Source: Candidatus Parcubacteria bacterium (GTDB lineage: Bacteria; Patescibacteriota; Minisyncoccia; Minisyncoccales; JAGOPM01). Taken from it: 40,161 nucleotides of DNA. Made by a program: the position numbers and the translations under genes. Shown in pieces: positions 5,179 through 40,084 of the stretch. Where the stretch lies: positions 1 to 40,161 of the forward strand of contig JAGOPM010000002.1 of the NCBI GenBank assembly GCA_017991975.1. The letters run 5' to 3'. Position 1 is the stretch's first letter, and every line of letters begins with the position of its first letter. Under the pieces are notes generated by a model that had not been told where the DNA came from, ran no database searches, and saw nothing but the letters and a program-made list of their open reading frames with translations.

Positions 5179-5266
5179 GGAGAGGTCGCATAGTGGCCGA
5201 GTGCGCTCGCTTGGAAAGCGAGTATATCGAAAGGTATCGTGGGTTCAAATCCCACCCTCTCCGCCA
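5179..5266 (+). tRNA. tRNA-Ser (anticodon GGA), encoded CCA end
   Basis: Hand-folded cloverleaf. Acceptor GGAGAGG/CCTCTCC. Anticodon stem CTCGC/GCGAG with loop TTGGAAA. Long variable arm TATATCGAAAGGTATC. T arm GTGGG-TTCAAAT-CCCAC, then G-CCA. Confidence 0.9.
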
Positions 5267-5299: not shown

Positions 5300-5515
5300 A
5301 TGTATTACGTCTATTCACTAAGATGCAAAGATGGTTATTATGTCGGTTGCACTGATAATGTCCAAGAAAGATTGGAACGACATCAAAAGAGTCGGGTGCC
5401 CGCAACGACAAATAGGTTACCTGTGACTTTAGAATTTTATTTTGCCATCGAAGATAAATATAGAGCTTTTGAATTTGAAAAATATCTAAAATCTGCTCTG
5501 GTCGAGCATTTATAA
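5300..5515 (+). CDS. GIY-YIG nuclease superfamily protein (UPF0213-like), short
   Basis: 71 aa. The MYYVYSLRCKDGYYVGCTDNVQERLERH pattern is the GIY-(10 aa)-YVG motif followed by R..H. Paralogous to 32490..32756. Confidence 0.7.
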   Translation: MYYVYSLRCKDGYYVGCTDNVQERLERHQKSRVPATTNRLPVTLEFYFAIEDKYRAFEFEKYLKSALVEHL

Positions 5516-6115: not shown

Positions 6116-6736
6116 ATGAGAAAATCTAAAAAAGCATTGGCGGTAGCAGCAATCCTAATTTTAGGGTTCTGCAATGTTGCCATGGCTCAAGGACTAATCA
6201 TAACAATGCAAATTGAGAATCCCATGGCTGATGTAAATGGAAAAGAGGTCGCAATGGATGTTGCTCCTATGATTGTAAACAATAGGACAATGGTCCCCTT
6301 GCGCTTCGTGGCTGAAAATTTTGGATTAAAAGTTGATTGGAACGACCACTCCAGAAAAATAACTATAAGCAGTAATCAGCAAGATCAATCAGAGATTGGA
6401 GAAGAAGTAATATTCGATAATCAGATAAGAGCTGATATCTCCAAAATCCCAGTTAGCAGTAATTGGTCAATTTCCACTTCAAAGAAGTATATAAAAATAA
6501 CTATAGTCTGCGAAGGGAAAAACCAAAAGTCAGAAATGGAATATTATATAAAAGACGCTTCTACTCATGATCAAATAGCAAAAGGAGGATACTCTGAAAA
6601 TCAATTGAAAATTCCATATCTGTGGATCAAAGAAATATCTTTCCAAAAAACATCCGACAAGATAAATCTCAATATCATAGCTAAAGAATTAAATTCTTTA
6701 CAGATATTAGCCTATGAATCAAATCTGGAGTTTTGA
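6116..6736 (+). CDS. secreted copper-amine-oxidase N-terminal (stalk-like) domain protein
   Basis: 206 aa. Signal peptide, then NGKEVAMDVAPMIVNNRTMVPLRFVAENFGLKVDWN, which matches the Cu_amine_oxidN1 domain pattern. Confidence 0.7.
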   Translation: MRKSKKALAVAAILILGFCNVAMAQGLIITMQIENPMADVNGKEVAMDVAPMIVNNRTMVPLRFVAENFGLKVDWNDHSRKITISSNQQDQSEIGEEVIFDNQIRADISKIPVSSNWSISTSKKYIKITIVCEGKNQKSEMEYYIKDASTHDQIAKGGYSENQLKIPYLWIKEISFQKTSDKINLNIIAKELNSLQILAYESNLEF

Positions 6737-24972: not shown

Positions 24973-25020
24973 AAAAAGCAGGAGAGAATTCTCTCCTGCT
25001 TTAGGATTTAGTGTTTATTA
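24971..25020. terminator. intrinsic terminator block T-A', copy 2 of the 50-nt exact repeat; shared by convergent epmA and the GC-rich gene
   Basis: Identical to 19995-20044. Its last 3 nt (tta, 25018-25020) are the TAA stop of the GC-rich gene. Confidence 0.8.
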
Positions 25021-25911
25021 CAAAAGATCTGAAGAAAGGAAGGCCGAAGCGGAGCCGTAGTGCTCGTAGACGCTGCCGAACCAGTAGGCGTCGAAACAGA
25101 CCCTGTCGACGGCGAAGCAGCCGAAGAGCGGCGCGCTCGAGAAGCTGCCAAAGCCGCCCGGAGCGAACTCGTCACCCGCGCAGTCGACGTGCAACTGTTC
25201 CCACCGAACTTCGCGTTCCGGGTGGGTCAGCAGCATGATGCCGACAGCGAAGGCACCGAGACCGAACTCGTTGGCCTGGAAGACCTCGCGTGCCCGGCGA
25301 ACCGAGCGACCGCGATACCTGAGACCGAACTGGGCCGGAACGACGAGGATGTCGTGATCCTTCTGCTCGTCGCCGAGCTTCTGGAACATCTTCGCCGTCT
25401 TCGCGTGCTGGCGCAGGTACTCCGCTCCGAGCCGGCCGTCACGGTAGTCGTAGAACTCCCGCTTCGACGCGATCATCGCGAGCACCTTCTGGAGCGCCTC
25501 GCCGTAGGTCGGGGCGATCTTCTCCCACCTCGGAATGGCGAACCATCCTTCGGCGCCGTCGGGCAACTGCGGCAGGTTCTTGGCGTACTCGAGCGCGCTC
25601 GCCGGGTCGAGATCGAAGATCTTGGTGATTACCTTGATCTGATCCGCGATCGGCTTGGGGCCCTTGTACTCCTTCGGATACGCGTAGCTCGACTCGACTT
25701 CCTCGTGGGCGAACTGGTTGTACAGCGAGAGCTCCTTGATGCCGATGATGATGCGAGCTTGAAACTTGTCACCGTTCTCGATGAGCTTCTGGATGCCGTC
25801 CTTGTCGAGGAGACCCTCGGCGATTGCGCGATCCACGGCGTCTTCCGCGAACCGCTTGACCTGCTTCTTCTGTCCGTCTGTGACGGTGGTGATCAATGTT
25901 TCCATTGTCAT
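25018..25911 (-). CDS. GC-rich hypothetical protein (297 aa; 295 aa if the second ATG at 25905 is used), compositionally foreign
   Basis: AAGGAGG at 25918-25912, then ATGACAATG. Strong G/C third-position bias along the minus frame. Consensus promoter and terminator. The opposite-strand ORF 25060..25920 lacks any start context. No family recognised by me. Confidence 0.7.
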   Translation of the reverse strand: MTMETLITTVTDGQKKQVKRFAEDAVDRAIAEGLLDKDGIQKLIENGDKFQARIIIGIKELSLYNQFAHEEVESSYAYPKEYKGPKPIADQIKVITKIFDLDPASALEYAKNLPQLPDGAEGWFAIPRWEKIAPTYGEALQKVLAMIASKREFYDYRDGRLGAEYLRQHAKTAKMFQKLGDEQKDHDILVVPAQFGLRYRGRSVRRAREVFQANEFGLGAFAVGIMLLTHPEREVRWEQLHVDCAGDEFAPGGFGSFSSAPLFGCFAVDRVCFDAYWFGSVYEHYGSASAFLSSDLL

Positions 25912-31664: not shown

Positions 31665-32221
31665 TTAGACAAATCAACTTTCGGAGCATTCTGAGCCTCT
31701 TCTTGAGATTCAAAATATGTTTTTTCAGAAAATCCAAATAATGAAGCTATCAAATTATTCGGAACTTTCTTAATAGAAGCATTGAATTCTTGAACTTTTT
31801 CATTATATCTCTGTCTTTCCACAGCAATTCTATTTTCCGTTCCTTCTAGTTGGACCATTAATGTATTAACTGTTTGCATTGAAGTAAGTTGCGGATAATT
31901 TTCCATCACAACTAAAAGCCTAGATAAAGCGCCTTCAACTTGAGTGGCTGCTTCAGCTTTTTGGTCTATTGTTTTTGCCCCTGAATATTTAGCACGCGCG
32001 TCTGCTAAATCTTTAAATATTGTCTGTTCTTGGGCCATCGCTCCTTTAACTGTTTCTACTAAATTAGGTATCAAATCAAGCCTTCTTTGATATTGTGATT
32101 CAACTTGCGCCCATTGAGCATTGATTCCCTCATCTAAAGAAACAAATTTATTATAAAATGACCAAAAATATCCTGCTAATAAAACTATTACGCCAAAAAT
32201 TATTAAATTTTTTTTATCCAT
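31661..32221 (-). CDS. lemA: LemA family protein
   Basis: 186 aa. TM anchor and the W.QVESQYQRR.DLIPNLVETVKG pattern. The LemA-TPM pairing is common. Confidence 0.85.
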   Translation of the reverse strand: MDKKNLIIFGVIVLLAGYFWSFYNKFVSLDEGINAQWAQVESQYQRRLDLIPNLVETVKGAMAQEQTIFKDLADARAKYSGAKTIDQKAEAATQVEGALSRLLVVMENYPQLTSMQTVNTLMVQLEGTENRIAVERQRYNEKVQEFNASIKKVPNNLIASLFGFSEKTYFESQEEAQNAPKVDLSK

Positions 32222-32269
32222 ATTTTTTATTATTTTTTATTATTTTTAATCCTTTGTTGCGGGACTAGG

Positions 32270-32300
32270 CCTCGCTCGTAAGCCGAGCTACGGCTGAGAG
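32270..32300. repeat. GC-rich palindromic hairpin element, degenerate copy (in the T-arm of the tRNA-like copy)
   Basis: cctcgctcgtaagccgagctacggctgagag. Same termini and core (cctcgc.cgt ... gctacggc.gag.g) as the two copies at 32348-32414. Confidence 0.75.
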
Positions 32301-32347
32301 ATTCGAACCTAGATAATCGCCTCCAGAGGGCGATGTCCTACCATTAG

Positions 32348-32414
32348 CCTCGCCCGTGGCCGGGCTACGGCCGAGGGCCTCGCCCGTAGGAAGTAGCCTA
32401 GCTACGGCCGAGGG
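32348..32414. repeat. two tandem GC-rich palindromic hairpin elements (30 nt + 37 nt) in the D-arm of the tRNA-like copy
   Basis: cctcgcccgtggccgggctacggccgaggg (32348-32377) and cctcgcccgtaggaagtagcctagctacggccgaggg (32378-32414). Each folds as CCTCG(C)CCGT...ACGGCGAGG-type stems of 9-12 bp with one mismatch or bulge. Confidence 0.85.
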
Positions 32415-32433
32415 ACGATCCTTCTGCGCAAAG

Positions 32434-32504
32434 TTGCGGGACTAGGATTCGAACCTAGATAATCGCCTCCAGAGGGCGATGTCCTACCATTAGACGATCC
32501 CGCA
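32434..32504 (-). tRNA. tRNA-Gln (anticodon CUG), no encoded CCA
   Basis: Hand fold. Acceptor TGCGGGA/TCCCGCA with U1-A72 (a bacterial tRNA-Gln hallmark). Anticodon stem ATCGCC/GGCGAT with loop CTCTGGA. T arm CTAGG-TTCGAAT-CCTAG. Discriminator A. Confidence 0.85.
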
Positions 32505-32756
32505 ACTTTGCGCAGAAATCAAAATTTTATTTTTTAATTCTTTTTTGCCTTTAGATGTTTTATAATATCTCTCCTTTTGAAAAGCTATATATCTATTACA
32601 ATATTTTTCGCTATAGATCATTCGAACTGGCAGGCGGTATTTAGTAGATTTAACTTTACCGCTACAATGTTCTTTAAATCTTTTCAAAAGATTACATGTA
32701 CACCCAATATATAAATTATTATCTTTATCACTCTTCAGAGTATAAATATAATACAT
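32490..32756 (-). CDS. GIY-YIG nuclease superfamily protein (UPF0213-like)
   Basis: MYYIYTLKSDKDNNLYIGCTCNLLKRFKEH is the GIY-YIG motif. ATG at 32756 is preferred over the track's TTG at 32765. The last 5 codons and the stop lie inside the 5' part of tRNA-Gln. Confidence 0.7.
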   Translation of the reverse strand: MYYIYTLKSDKDNNLYIGCTCNLLKRFKEHCSGKVKSTKYRLPVRMIYSEKYCNRYIAFQKERYYKTSKGKKELKNKILISAQSCGIV

Positions 32757-32772
32757 AACCCGCAAAAAATGA

Positions 32773-33705
32773 TCAAACTTTCAAATATCTTTTAACTGCC
32801 AAAGCATTTGCAAAAATAGCTATCCCGACCCCTGCAAATAATTGCATAAAAAATATTTTCCAAAAATTATTTCCAAAATACATGAAAGGATTGAAACCAG
32901 AGCTTATTGCCATAATCTTTGGAGTTGAGAAATAAGTAACACAGCCTATCAGAATTAAAGAAAATAAAACTGCCAAAATCCCGCAGACAAAACCAACAAC
33001 CATAAAAGGCCCTCTAACAAACCAATTTGAAGCACCTACTAATTTCATGACTCCTATTTCTTCTTTAAAACTTCTAACAGTAAGCCTCACAGTGGAAAAT
33101 ACCATCAAGATAACTATTAGAACAAAAAATATAGCGACAATCAAGCCCATAAACTTGATGTCTCTTGTCAAATTTATCAGTGACTTTATTATACTTTCAG
33201 TTTCATAATAACTCATCTGATCTATGATTGGAGAATATTTATCCTGTTTTAAAAATTTAGCTATTTCATCATAAGGATTAGCAGTTCCAGGAATTAAGCT
33301 ATCATCTTGTTTTGCGATGACTCTGATAGAAGAAGGTAAAGGATTTCCTTCTATTATTTCCAAAGTTTTTAATATTGAATCATCATAAGAATGTTTGTCT
33401 TTAAATTTTTGCAAAGCTTCTTCTTTAGAAATATAAATAACATCTTTTATATCTCCTCTTTGTTTAAGTTCTTGTTGCAATTTCAAAATATCATCAGTGC
33501 TTGTCTCTAATTTAAAATAAACACTAATACCGACTTTTTGCTGAACCGATTCATGCAAAAAATTATATAATCCATCTATAAAAAATGCGGAAGTTAGCAG
33601 AGTCAACCCAACCATTAAAACAAAAATTGTAGCAGAATTAAGGGCAAATTGCCTTTTAAAATTGATCAATCCAGACTTAAAAATTCTTTTGAATAAATTA
33701 AGCAT
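32773..33705 (-). CDS. ftsX: cell division permease FtsX
   Basis: 310 aa. TM1, a large periplasmic loop and 3 C-terminal TMs. The MKLVGASNWFVRGPF motif is typical of FtsX. Directly downstream of ftsE. Confidence 0.88.
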   Translation of the reverse strand: MLNLFKRIFKSGLINFKRQFALNSATIFVLMVGLTLLTSAFFIDGLYNFLHESVQQKVGISVYFKLETSTDDILKLQQELKQRGDIKDVIYISKEEALQKFKDKHSYDDSILKTLEIIEGNPLPSSIRVIAKQDDSLIPGTANPYDEIAKFLKQDKYSPIIDQMSYYETESIIKSLINLTRDIKFMGLIVAIFFVLIVILMVFSTVRLTVRSFKEEIGVMKLVGASNWFVRGPFMVVGFVCGILAVLFSLILIGCVTYFSTPKIMAISSGFNPFMYFGNNFWKIFFMQLFAGVGIAIFANALAVKRYLKV

Positions 33706-39730: not shown

Positions 39731-39744
39731 ATCTATTTAAAAAG

Positions 39745-40084
39745 CCTAAGTAAGCAATAAGCCGAATTCTGTCTTGGGTAATCATTTATCTGCCCTACCA
39801 ATTGCTTGGCAAGATCAAGCGAGCTACTTTTCTCTATAAGCCTTTCGGCAAATAGATTTGCTCTTGCATTCAAGTAAGGATTTAGCCGTTTCACCTTCAA
39901 GGTTTCCCTTAAAGCTGACCCAAATGGATCCTCTTCTGTTTTCACAGAAAAGCGTCTCTGCTCGCACCTCTATCCTTGCGGACGGCGGCCGTTAACCGCT
40001 ACTCTTTTTCCCGTAAACGGGAGAATGTTCGGACTTTCCTCCCTTCTGCCTTGCGGCGAAGAGCGATTACCTTGCTTACTTAGG
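39745..40084 (-). ncRNA. rnpB: RNase P RNA, bacterial type A
   Basis: On the minus strand, P1 is CCTAAGTAAGCAA (40084-40072) pairing with TTGCTTACTTAGG (39757-39745). CR-I is GGGAGGAAAGTCCGAAC. Also AGATAAATGATTACC and ACAGAATTCGGCTTAT (P4 3' strand). Locally GC-enriched. Confidence 0.9.

Follow-up and report, generated by a model that had tools for sequence, protein, structure and literature searches.

A probable displaced tRNA-Gln pseudogene in a recurrent GIY-YIG nuclease/tRNA cassette of Patescibacteria, interrupted by copies of a GC-rich palindromic element

We analysed a 40,161-nt stretch of DNA from a Candidatus Parcubacteria genome (NCBI GenBank assembly GCA_017991975.1, contig JAGOPM010000002.1, positions 1 to 40,161; hereafter the window), in which an intact tRNA-Gln(CUG) gene is followed by a second, collinear tRNA-Gln copy that is split by GC-rich hairpin elements. 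This second copy, referred to here as copy 2, is probably a displaced tRNA-Gln(CUG) pseudogene that forms part of a recurrent selfish cassette of Patescibacteria, composed of a GIY-YIG nuclease gene and a tRNA gene, and that has been colonised by a palindromic element similar to repetitive extragenic palindromes (REPs) and Rickettsia palindromic elements (RPEs). The combination of hairpin, tRNA fragment and linked GIY-YIG gene recurs in dozens of lineages, and the hairpin is also found in frame within protein genes. The features of the window that bear directly on copy 2 are the following.

32256..32421, minus strand: copy 2, a 5'-truncated tRNA-Gln (nt 5 to 73+1) with three hairpin elements, delimited by identical blocks
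32378..32413, minus strand: hairpin element E1, 36-nt core, at D-stem position 12/13, with C at 32414 and 32377; matches the family pattern (compare locus L207)
32348..32376, minus strand: hairpin element E2, 29-nt core, in tandem with E1
32270..32299, minus strand: hairpin element E3, 30-nt core, decayed, at the T-loop/T-stem boundary (position 60/61)
32433..32504, minus strand: intact tRNA-Gln(CUG), the working copy (tRNA 1; ARAGORN; Rfam RF00005, 65.3 bits)

Three blocks of copy 2 are 100% identical to the intact tRNA (GGATCGT at 32421-32415, 48 nt at 32347-32300 and 13 nt at 32268-32256), in agreement with an initial annotation, made from the window sequence alone, that had described a second collinear tRNA-Gln copy with segments identical to the first and three long GC-rich inserts, which correspond to E1, E2 and E3. 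That annotation also assigned a 9-12-bp stem to each insert, which holds for E1 and E2, whose GC stems of 11-12 bp contain one G.G mismatch (predicted folding energies of -22 and -17.5 kcal/mol, respectively), but not for E3, which is decayed and has a weak predicted fold (-10 kcal/mol). E2 reproduces exactly the second commonest hairpin sequence, a 29-nt subfamily with 14 occurrences among the metagenome matches listed, and E3, detected by a fuzzy scan only, has one extra T relative to the 30-nt subfamily and three to four substitutions, all from G or C to A or T. Each element is bordered by C residues, the arrangement being GTC-core-C-core-C-TAA for E1/E2 and AATC-core-C-CTAG for E3, as at the other sites described below. 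The hairpin motif is observed six times in the window against 1.15 expected, with five of the six within this locus; the fuzzy scan of the 40 kb recovered three hairpin copies only, all in this locus, and none in shuffled sequences.

The genes at the locus all lie on the minus strand, in the order RF-like factor, FtsE, FtsX, small GIY-YIG open reading frame (ORF), tRNA-Gln, copy 2, LemA and TPM (Pfam), in a genome with a GC content of 31-35%. Misassembly, a possibility raised in the initial annotation, is ruled out; five independent assemblies, with 2-53 differences in their flanks, show the same sequence throughout the 551-bp FtsX-LemA spacer, and the structure of the locus is therefore real. 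A promoter and terminator scan of the locus gave no terminator-like site and was uninformative. Four further features of the spacer enter into the argument.

32759..32765, minus strand: 7-nt stub TTGCGGG, equal to tRNA-Gln nt -1 to 6 (by sequence); presumed 5' end of a displaced resident tRNA-Gln gene
32490..32756, minus strand: stand-alone GIY-YIG nuclease ORF, 88 aa (Pfam GIY-YIG PF01541, E=1.1e-11)
32505..32517, minus strand: leader of tRNA 1, within the 3' end of the nuclease ORF; base-pairs with the trailer, which lengthens the acceptor stem by 13 bp
32422..32432, minus strand: trailer of tRNA 1, TTTGCGCAGAA after A73 and C; identified by the inverted repeat and by comparison with locus L088

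The stub is located 8 nt past the FtsX stop codon (32773-32775) and directly ahead of the ATG of the nuclease ORF, and simple counting puts the chance of a 7-nt GC-rich match in the 17-nt AT-rich spacer between the two at approximately 1e-3 to 1e-4. At its other end the nuclease ORF runs into the intact tRNA, with its last four codons and stop (TGC GGG ATC GTC TAA) forming tRNA nt 1-15, and the same overlap is seen in 13 of the 16 other loci examined among the matches listed. Residues Y5, Y16, G18, R26, H30 and E62 of the nuclease are invariant in 16 relatives, all of them except G18 being catalytic, and the nearest solved structures are the UPF0213 proteins 1zg2 and 1ywl; the predicted product is a member of the GIY-YIG superfamily of the UPF0213/YhbQ-like, stand-alone domain type. 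Two closer relatives of the window were found through the protein database (L086 and L088, with LemA identity of 74% and 72%, respectively), while LemA-based synteny in 80 GTDB species gave relatives at most 69% identical, mostly without tRNA-Gln beside LemA. Many lineages have the GIY-YIG ORF joined to a tRNA-Gln, tRNA-Glu, tRNA-Thr or tRNA-Ser gene, and it is absent at the tRNA-Gln of L086 and L088, so that the nuclease gene shows the presence/absence pattern in a conserved target gene that is seen for homing endonuclease genes. Across the loci compared, small GIY-YIG ORFs lie at most 13 nt from a tRNA gene in five of seven independent cases. Counted among these cases is a second GIY-YIG ORF of the window (70 aa, 5300-5512, plus strand), which starts 34 nt downstream of tRNA-Ser(GGA) (5179-5266) and has neither a hairpin nor a partial tRNA copy.

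A perfect 20-nt inverted repeat (32422-32441 / 32498-32517) unites the acceptor stem of tRNA 1 with 13 additional leader/trailer base pairs, and this helix is present in the predicted minimum-free-energy fold. Between the window (CTGCGCAAAG/CTTTGCGCAG) and L088 (CTGTGCAAGG/CCTTGCACAG), two compensatory changes keep the pairing; moreover, the TGCG match of the trailer is absent in L088, whose trailer covaries with its leader. TGCG and the ttctg that the initial annotation had taken for a 5-nt insert in the 5' acceptor strand thus belong to the trailer of tRNA 1, complementary to its leader, so that the first tRNA position present in copy 2 is nt 5, and "interrupted" does not describe its acceptor stem. 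Copy 2 is without tRNA nt 1-4 and hence without a 5' acceptor strand. Leader-trailer helices of 13-14 bp that extend the acceptor stem through the discriminator are also seen at tRNAs of other genomes of the candidate phyla radiation (CPR) that lack an encoded CCA (L034, L065, L077 and L088), and the presence of such helices at CPR tRNA genes would imply an unusual precursor processing.

The hairpin motif, which the initial annotation had considered a possible dispersed repeat, is indeed a widespread element. A metagenome scan with the exact-arm pattern CCTCGGCCGTAG N4-30 ACGGGCGAGG matched at least 120 contigs and gave at least 69 distinct hairpin sequences, located in tRNA fragments, intergenic DNA and ORFs; the element core is a GC-rich imperfect palindrome of 26-40 nt with these two arms and one fixed G.G mismatch. 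No match to the pattern is present in the phage and viral contigs of IMG/VR, and none was found in 568 kb from 80 other CPR species when two mismatches per arm were allowed. In at least 30 loci the element is inserted at ..TCGTC^(hairpin)C^TAA.. of tRNA-Gln, or in three of them tRNA-Glu, and the number of D-stem loci rises to at least about 35 once tandem arrays and nested hairpins are counted. The usual layout, seen in about 20 loci among the matches listed, comprises tRNA nt 1-12, one to four hairpins, tRNA nt 13-25, the GIY-YIG ORF and an intact tRNA, with nt 13-25 supplying an AGGA-like ribosome-binding site (RBS). The cassette ORFs encode approximately 79-93 aa (one of them 106), usually 83-84, and most of them end in the first 15-16 nt of the downstream tRNA, which in about 20 of the listed hairpin loci with an ORF is an intact tRNA located 277-413 nt downstream. 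Among the matches listed, stub nt 1-12 equal those of the adjacent tRNA in 21 of 25 loci, over seven acceptor-stem variants, and nt 13-25 do so in 14 of 25. Head-to-tail hairpin arrays with a 40-nt period occupy the D-stem site in L094 (four copies), L160 (three), L137 and L173.

The layout of the window, with ORF, intact tRNA and a near-complete hairpin-bearing copy, is also found in L159, L208 and L106. Furthermore, L208, L106 and L210 have a stub, TTGCGGG(G), on the upstream side, in which the acceptor site is occupied by hairpins in reverse orientation. This second insertion site (TTGCGG^GGATCG), which also holds hairpins in L185, L201 and L174, coincides with the start of copy 2 in the window. 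L210 is syntenic for FtsX and has the order FtsX, TTTGCGGG, hairpins, ATCGTCT, ORF and tRNA-Gln. A large serine recombinase gene (Resolvase, Recombinase and Zn ribbon domains) lies on the opposite strand immediately after the intact tRNA-Gln of the cassette in L210 (1003-1658), L212 (1000-1655) and L214 (1000-1655), and the cassette tRNA-Gln apparently doubles as an integration site for larger elements.

These loci bear on whether copy 2 could be a working tRNA gene or a tRNA-derived structured RNA, with the hairpins removed or tolerated after transcription. The perfect identity of its tRNA segments to the intact copy would fit such a role, as would the in-silico excision of the hairpin from L208, which restores a tRNA-Gln called by ARAGORN, and insertions have been reported in CPR rRNAs (PMC11270868). 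Short inserts at D-arm and T-arm positions moreover liken copy 2 to archaeal tRNA genes with multiple non-canonical introns. The host, however, is bacterial, with a class A RNase P RNA, and the hairpin-bearing copies are truncated and redundant: nt 1-4 are missing from copy 2, which has no acceptor stem, at least 20 loci have as their hairpin-bearing piece a mere 25-nt stub ahead of an ORF, and an intact, hairpin-free tRNA of the same identity (Gln/Glu) lies within approximately 400 nt of every listed D-stem hairpin piece for which enough contig is available. The element boundaries fall at the base of a continuous 11-12-bp stem in the predicted fold, so that copy 2 does not contain the bulge-helix-bulge of archaeal introns, in which a 4-bp helix separates two 3-nt bulges. 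ARAGORN gives no call for copy 2, whose Rfam tRNA score of 19.7 bits is under the 29-bit gathering score and which does not form a complete cloverleaf with a 7-bp acceptor stem. At the gathering threshold Rfam detects nothing besides tRNA here, and at E<=10 over 32100-32800 it detects tRNA and chance-level matches only, with no group I or group II intron or other family; E3, in addition, is decaying. The excisable-intron reading proposed in the initial annotation therefore fails on the missing nt 1-4, the 25-nt stubs elsewhere, the adjacent intact tRNA and the lack of a bulge-helix-bulge, and the same evidence speaks against the tRNA-derived structured RNA that it also proposed, which makes a functional copy 2 exceedingly improbable.

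Outside tRNA genes, the element lies within long ORFs in about 60 of the remaining loci among the matches listed. The proteins encoded by these ORFs are genuine core proteins, namely PurL, UvrA (two orthologues), RpoB (two), FtsK, PBP2, a VirD4-like ATPase and a solute-binding protein, and, depending on strand and frame, the insert is translated as LGRSPTGEA, ASPVGLRPR, LARRATAEG or PSAVAERAR. Compared with solved PDB structures of UvrA, the copy in this protein adds 9 aa, and the RpoB copy falls in a region of variable length. A C is found directly on both sides of the element at all 55 non-tRNA sites among the matches listed, where no target-site motif other than this flanking C was seen, and the net insertion is therefore the core plus 1 nt, which fits either a 1-nt duplication of C or an insertion next to a C. 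This length is divisible by three in 22 of 24 listed ORF copies in AT-rich contigs, as opposed to 10 of 36 copies at the tRNA D-stem site. In occupying many unrelated sites and in its frame-preserving insertions within protein genes, the element has the features by which REP- and RPE-like elements are recognised, and it is best regarded as a candidate of this type.

The linkage between hairpin and nuclease is also seen from the side of the nuclease. Seven loci were picked by nuclease homology regardless of the hairpin (57-64% amino-acid identity to the window protein), and all seven have the element in a tRNA-Gln stub, five of them with perfect arms. Moreover, the tRNA-Thr region of L088 contains a 5' stub with a different palindrome, then a GIY-YIG ORF of a different clade, then an intact tRNA-Thr, so that two GIY-YIG clades are associated with two different palindromes at equivalent positions. 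The conservation of the arms, the constant presence of the hairpin in the nuclease-linked stub, and the pairing of two clades with two palindromes suggest either recognition or mobilisation of the hairpin by the nuclease, or a role of the hairpin as a cis-element. In the latter case, the hairpin would be a functional part of the nuclease/tRNA cassette and the hairpin-bearing tRNA piece would be kept for that reason; the hairpin might be bound or cleaved by the GIY-YIG protein, stabilise the nuclease mRNA at its 5' end or regulate its translation, or prevent misfolding or recombination between the tRNA duplicates. The fixed location at position 12/13, just upstream of the AGGA-like RBS and ATG, in about 20 listed loci argues for a cis-element, and so do the seven loci above, the conservation of the arms while the ORFs diverge to 55-65% identity, the agreement of stub nt 1-12 with the local acceptor sequence in 21 of 25 listed loci, and the different palindrome that accompanies the different clade in L088. 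The same hairpin, however, occurs at many unrelated sites, including protein genes without a nuclease gene nearby, and it forms tandem arrays of two to four copies; in addition, the window hairpins follow the tRNA and do not precede the ORF, and stubs persist without an ORF in L093 and L139. We consider this cis-element reading unlikely.

The relatives also bear on another possible origin of copy 2, namely an ordinary local tandem duplication from nt 5 through the trailer, unrelated to the nuclease and later hit by a REP-like element. L088 supports such a duplication, having leader, tRNA-Gln, trailer, a truncated copy starting at GGATCGTC and a further trailer, with no ORF at that locus; the duplicated blocks of the window are identical, and other CPR tRNAs also have partial copies nearby. 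Against it stand the triad of hairpin, tRNA fragment and GIY-YIG gene at the same nucleotide position in dozens of lineages, the 7-nt tRNA stub directly upstream of the window ORF together with the longer stubs of L210, L208 and L106, and the fact that the truncation point GGATCGTC coincides with the second hairpin insertion site TTGCGG^GGATCG (L185, L201 and L174). We regard an origin by such a duplication as very unlikely. The truncated tRNA-Gln copy of L088 carries a different palindrome, the 16-nt GC sequence CCTGCCGGCAGGCAGG, at the same D-stem position, and palindromes of this family, (CCTGCC)n..(GGCAGG)n, are found at 820-860 and 6667-6682 of L088, in the D loop of the tRNA-Thr stub and in the D stem of the truncated tRNA-Gln. 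In L086, an inverted tRNA-Gln is followed by an unrelated GC-rich segment and then by a 21-nt 3' tRNA fragment. Apparently structured GC-rich segments of approximately 100 nt are present in this and other CPR genomes (L086 4039-4145; L024 ~6420-6525; L022 ~370-460 and 545-640), with inverted or direct tRNA T-arm/acceptor fragments at their flanks and intact tRNAs adjacent; these segments are unrelated to the hairpin family and have no Rfam match.

The reading that we prefer, in which copy 2 is a displaced pseudogene, can be put as a sequence of events. A unit of nuclease gene plus tRNA (~32758..32422) would have been inserted in an old tRNA gene at acceptor position 6/7, so that a 7-nt stub would be left on the upstream side and the remainder, nt 5-73, on the other. 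This remainder is unable to work as a tRNA because nt 1-4 are missing and the D stem and T arm are both split. The palindrome shows the behaviour of a mobile element and is spread over many lineages, being tolerated in protein genes only if the frame is kept; E1 and E2 occupy the canonical D-stem site 12/13, and E3 is probably an older copy that is decaying. The initial annotation, in listing a decaying duplicate colonised by a REP-like palindrome or miniature inverted-repeat transposable element (MITE) among its interpretations, was essentially right but understated the case, having missed the cassette, the canonical D-stem site and the in-frame copies. It took the perfect identity of the tRNA segments as a sign of a recent event or of constraint; the simplest source of that identity, in the window and in L159, would be a duplication of recent date or conversion by the intact gene copy 90 nt away. 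The argument for constraint is weakened by L208 and L106, in which the hairpin-bearing copy and the intact tRNA are strongly different and which indicate that identity of the two tRNA copies is no general rule.

Several observations nevertheless weigh against the displaced-pseudogene reading or parts of it. The tRNA segments of copy 2 and of its counterpart in L159 match the intact copy at 100%, yet E3 carries several changes, a combination that calls for gene conversion or constraint. In diverged genomes, the hairpins at the orthologous UvrA sites L149 and L186 are identical at 26 of 26 positions with flanking coding DNA at 60-66%, and those at the orthologous RpoB sites L091 and L103 at 39 of 40 positions with flanks at ~65%; arms so much better conserved than their surroundings point to a sequence-level function or to site-specific re-insertion, and not to junk. 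The copy number per genome, unlike that of classical REPs, appears to be low, with three copies at one locus in the 40-kb window and one or two exact copies in the large contigs among the matches listed. Finally, the insertion scenario draws on a 7-nt match and on analogy, and a plain tandem duplication from nt 5 through the trailer would also yield the observed layout of tRNA 1 and copy 2.

The linked GIY-YIG nuclease may mobilise or recognise the hairpin. On a wider, more tentative interpretation, to which we give some weight but less than even credence, the hairpin and the ~85-aa GIY-YIG protein would be the two parts of one mobile system, a GIY-YIG counterpart of the REPtrons, in which REPs are paired with a REP-associated tyrosine transposase (RAYT). 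The autonomous unit would be anchored on tRNA-Gln or tRNA-Glu genes, where tRNA nt 13-25 would provide its ORF with the RBS and nt 1-15 with the final codons and stop. The nuclease would recognise the strand-specific, G.G-mismatched hairpin and copy it next to C residues, essential protein genes included.

Comparison with known systems places the element near, but not within, several described families. Like the hairpin, RPEs are short palindromic repeats of a small AT-rich genome that have invaded non-coding DNA, RNA genes and, in frame, protein genes. The hairpin element differs from them in being shorter (26-40 nt core), strongly GC-rich, apparently of low copy number and unrelated in sequence, and in being distributed across many CPR lineages, in which it is physically associated with a GIY-YIG gene and with one fixed position of the tRNA. 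Classical RPE-1 is larger than the hairpin element. Rickettsia felis contains 728 RPEs, of which 85 are inside ORFs and three in RNA genes (PMC1166351). REPs, bacterial interspersed mosaic elements (BIMEs) and REPtrons resemble the hairpin in being imperfect palindromes of 20-40 nt, at times in tandem clusters and at times intragenic (uvrA), and REPtron copies likewise lie beside a dedicated nuclease-type gene (Di Nocera et al. 2013, PMC3733652). In contrast to these elements, the hairpin has no evident unpaired GTAG or CGTC head and a low copy number, its arm sequences are identical across distant lineages, and a master-like copy is located inside a tRNA fragment. REPtron membership was rejected because the linked gene is a UPF0213-type GIY-YIG gene (Pfam; PDB 1zg2/1ywl) and not a Y1/HUH RAYT, and assignment to the GTAG/CGTC-tagged REPs was rejected because the CGTC that precedes the hairpin at the tRNA site is a coincidence, non-tRNA sites being without CGTC.

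The phage T4 gene for SegB is, like the window ORF, a free-standing GIY-YIG gene among tRNA genes, and SegB is reported to cut the tRNA gene region and to drive its own inheritance with flanking DNA (PMC2330249). The window protein differs from SegB in consisting of a catalytic domain of ~85 aa only, with no DNA-binding domain, and in being cellular (zero matches of the hairpin pattern in IMG/VR). In addition, the window ORF overlaps its accompanying tRNA, and a duplicated tRNA piece and a palindrome are associated with it. Fungal mitochondria offer further resemblances. In the Allomyces mitochondrial atp6 gene, a mobile endonuclease ORF brings a replacement part of its target and leaves the resident segment as a pseudogene, and the GC clusters and double-hairpin elements of fungal mitochondria are GC-rich palindromes that spread in an AT-rich genome. 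These cases are organellar and involve protein-coding targets and other element sequences, and the likeness is one of resemblance only. Searches of open-access papers did not reveal any account of the motif, the encoded peptides or a GIY-YIG/tRNA/hairpin arrangement in Patescibacteria, and the hairpin family and the composite of nuclease, tRNA and palindrome are apparently undescribed.

Two other features of the window lie apart from the locus. The high-GC block at 25.0-25.9 kb was considered as an array of the same hairpins and rejected, since it is an ORF of 297 aa without repeats (25018-25911, minus strand); with 60-67% GC, abrupt composition boundaries and no Pfam, NCBIfam or PHROG match, this ORF looks like a recently acquired foreign gene, as judged by composition. 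The class A bacterial RNase P RNA mentioned above is encoded at 39743-40082 on the minus strand (Rfam, 131.8 bits).

CPR genomes are tiny and streamlined, so that selfish DNA spreading in their tRNA genes and in RpoB, UvrA and FtsK is unexpected. The element and its cassette have practical effects on annotation, where they give rise to broken "tRNA" calls, to insertions of 9-13 aa in conserved proteins and to small nuclease ORFs overlapping tRNAs, and they provide a simple explanation, without bacterial tRNA splicing, of interrupted tRNA duplicates in CPR genomes. The mobilisation of CGTC-type REPs, for which no transposase is known, is an open question, as it is for RPEs (PMC3733652). The strict linkage of the hairpin to a minimal GIY-YIG gene is a testable candidate for how REP/RPE-like palindromes move. 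If the two-part hairpin/GIY-YIG system is real, it would represent a new class of prokaryotic mobile element, specific to the ultra-small genomes of the CPR.

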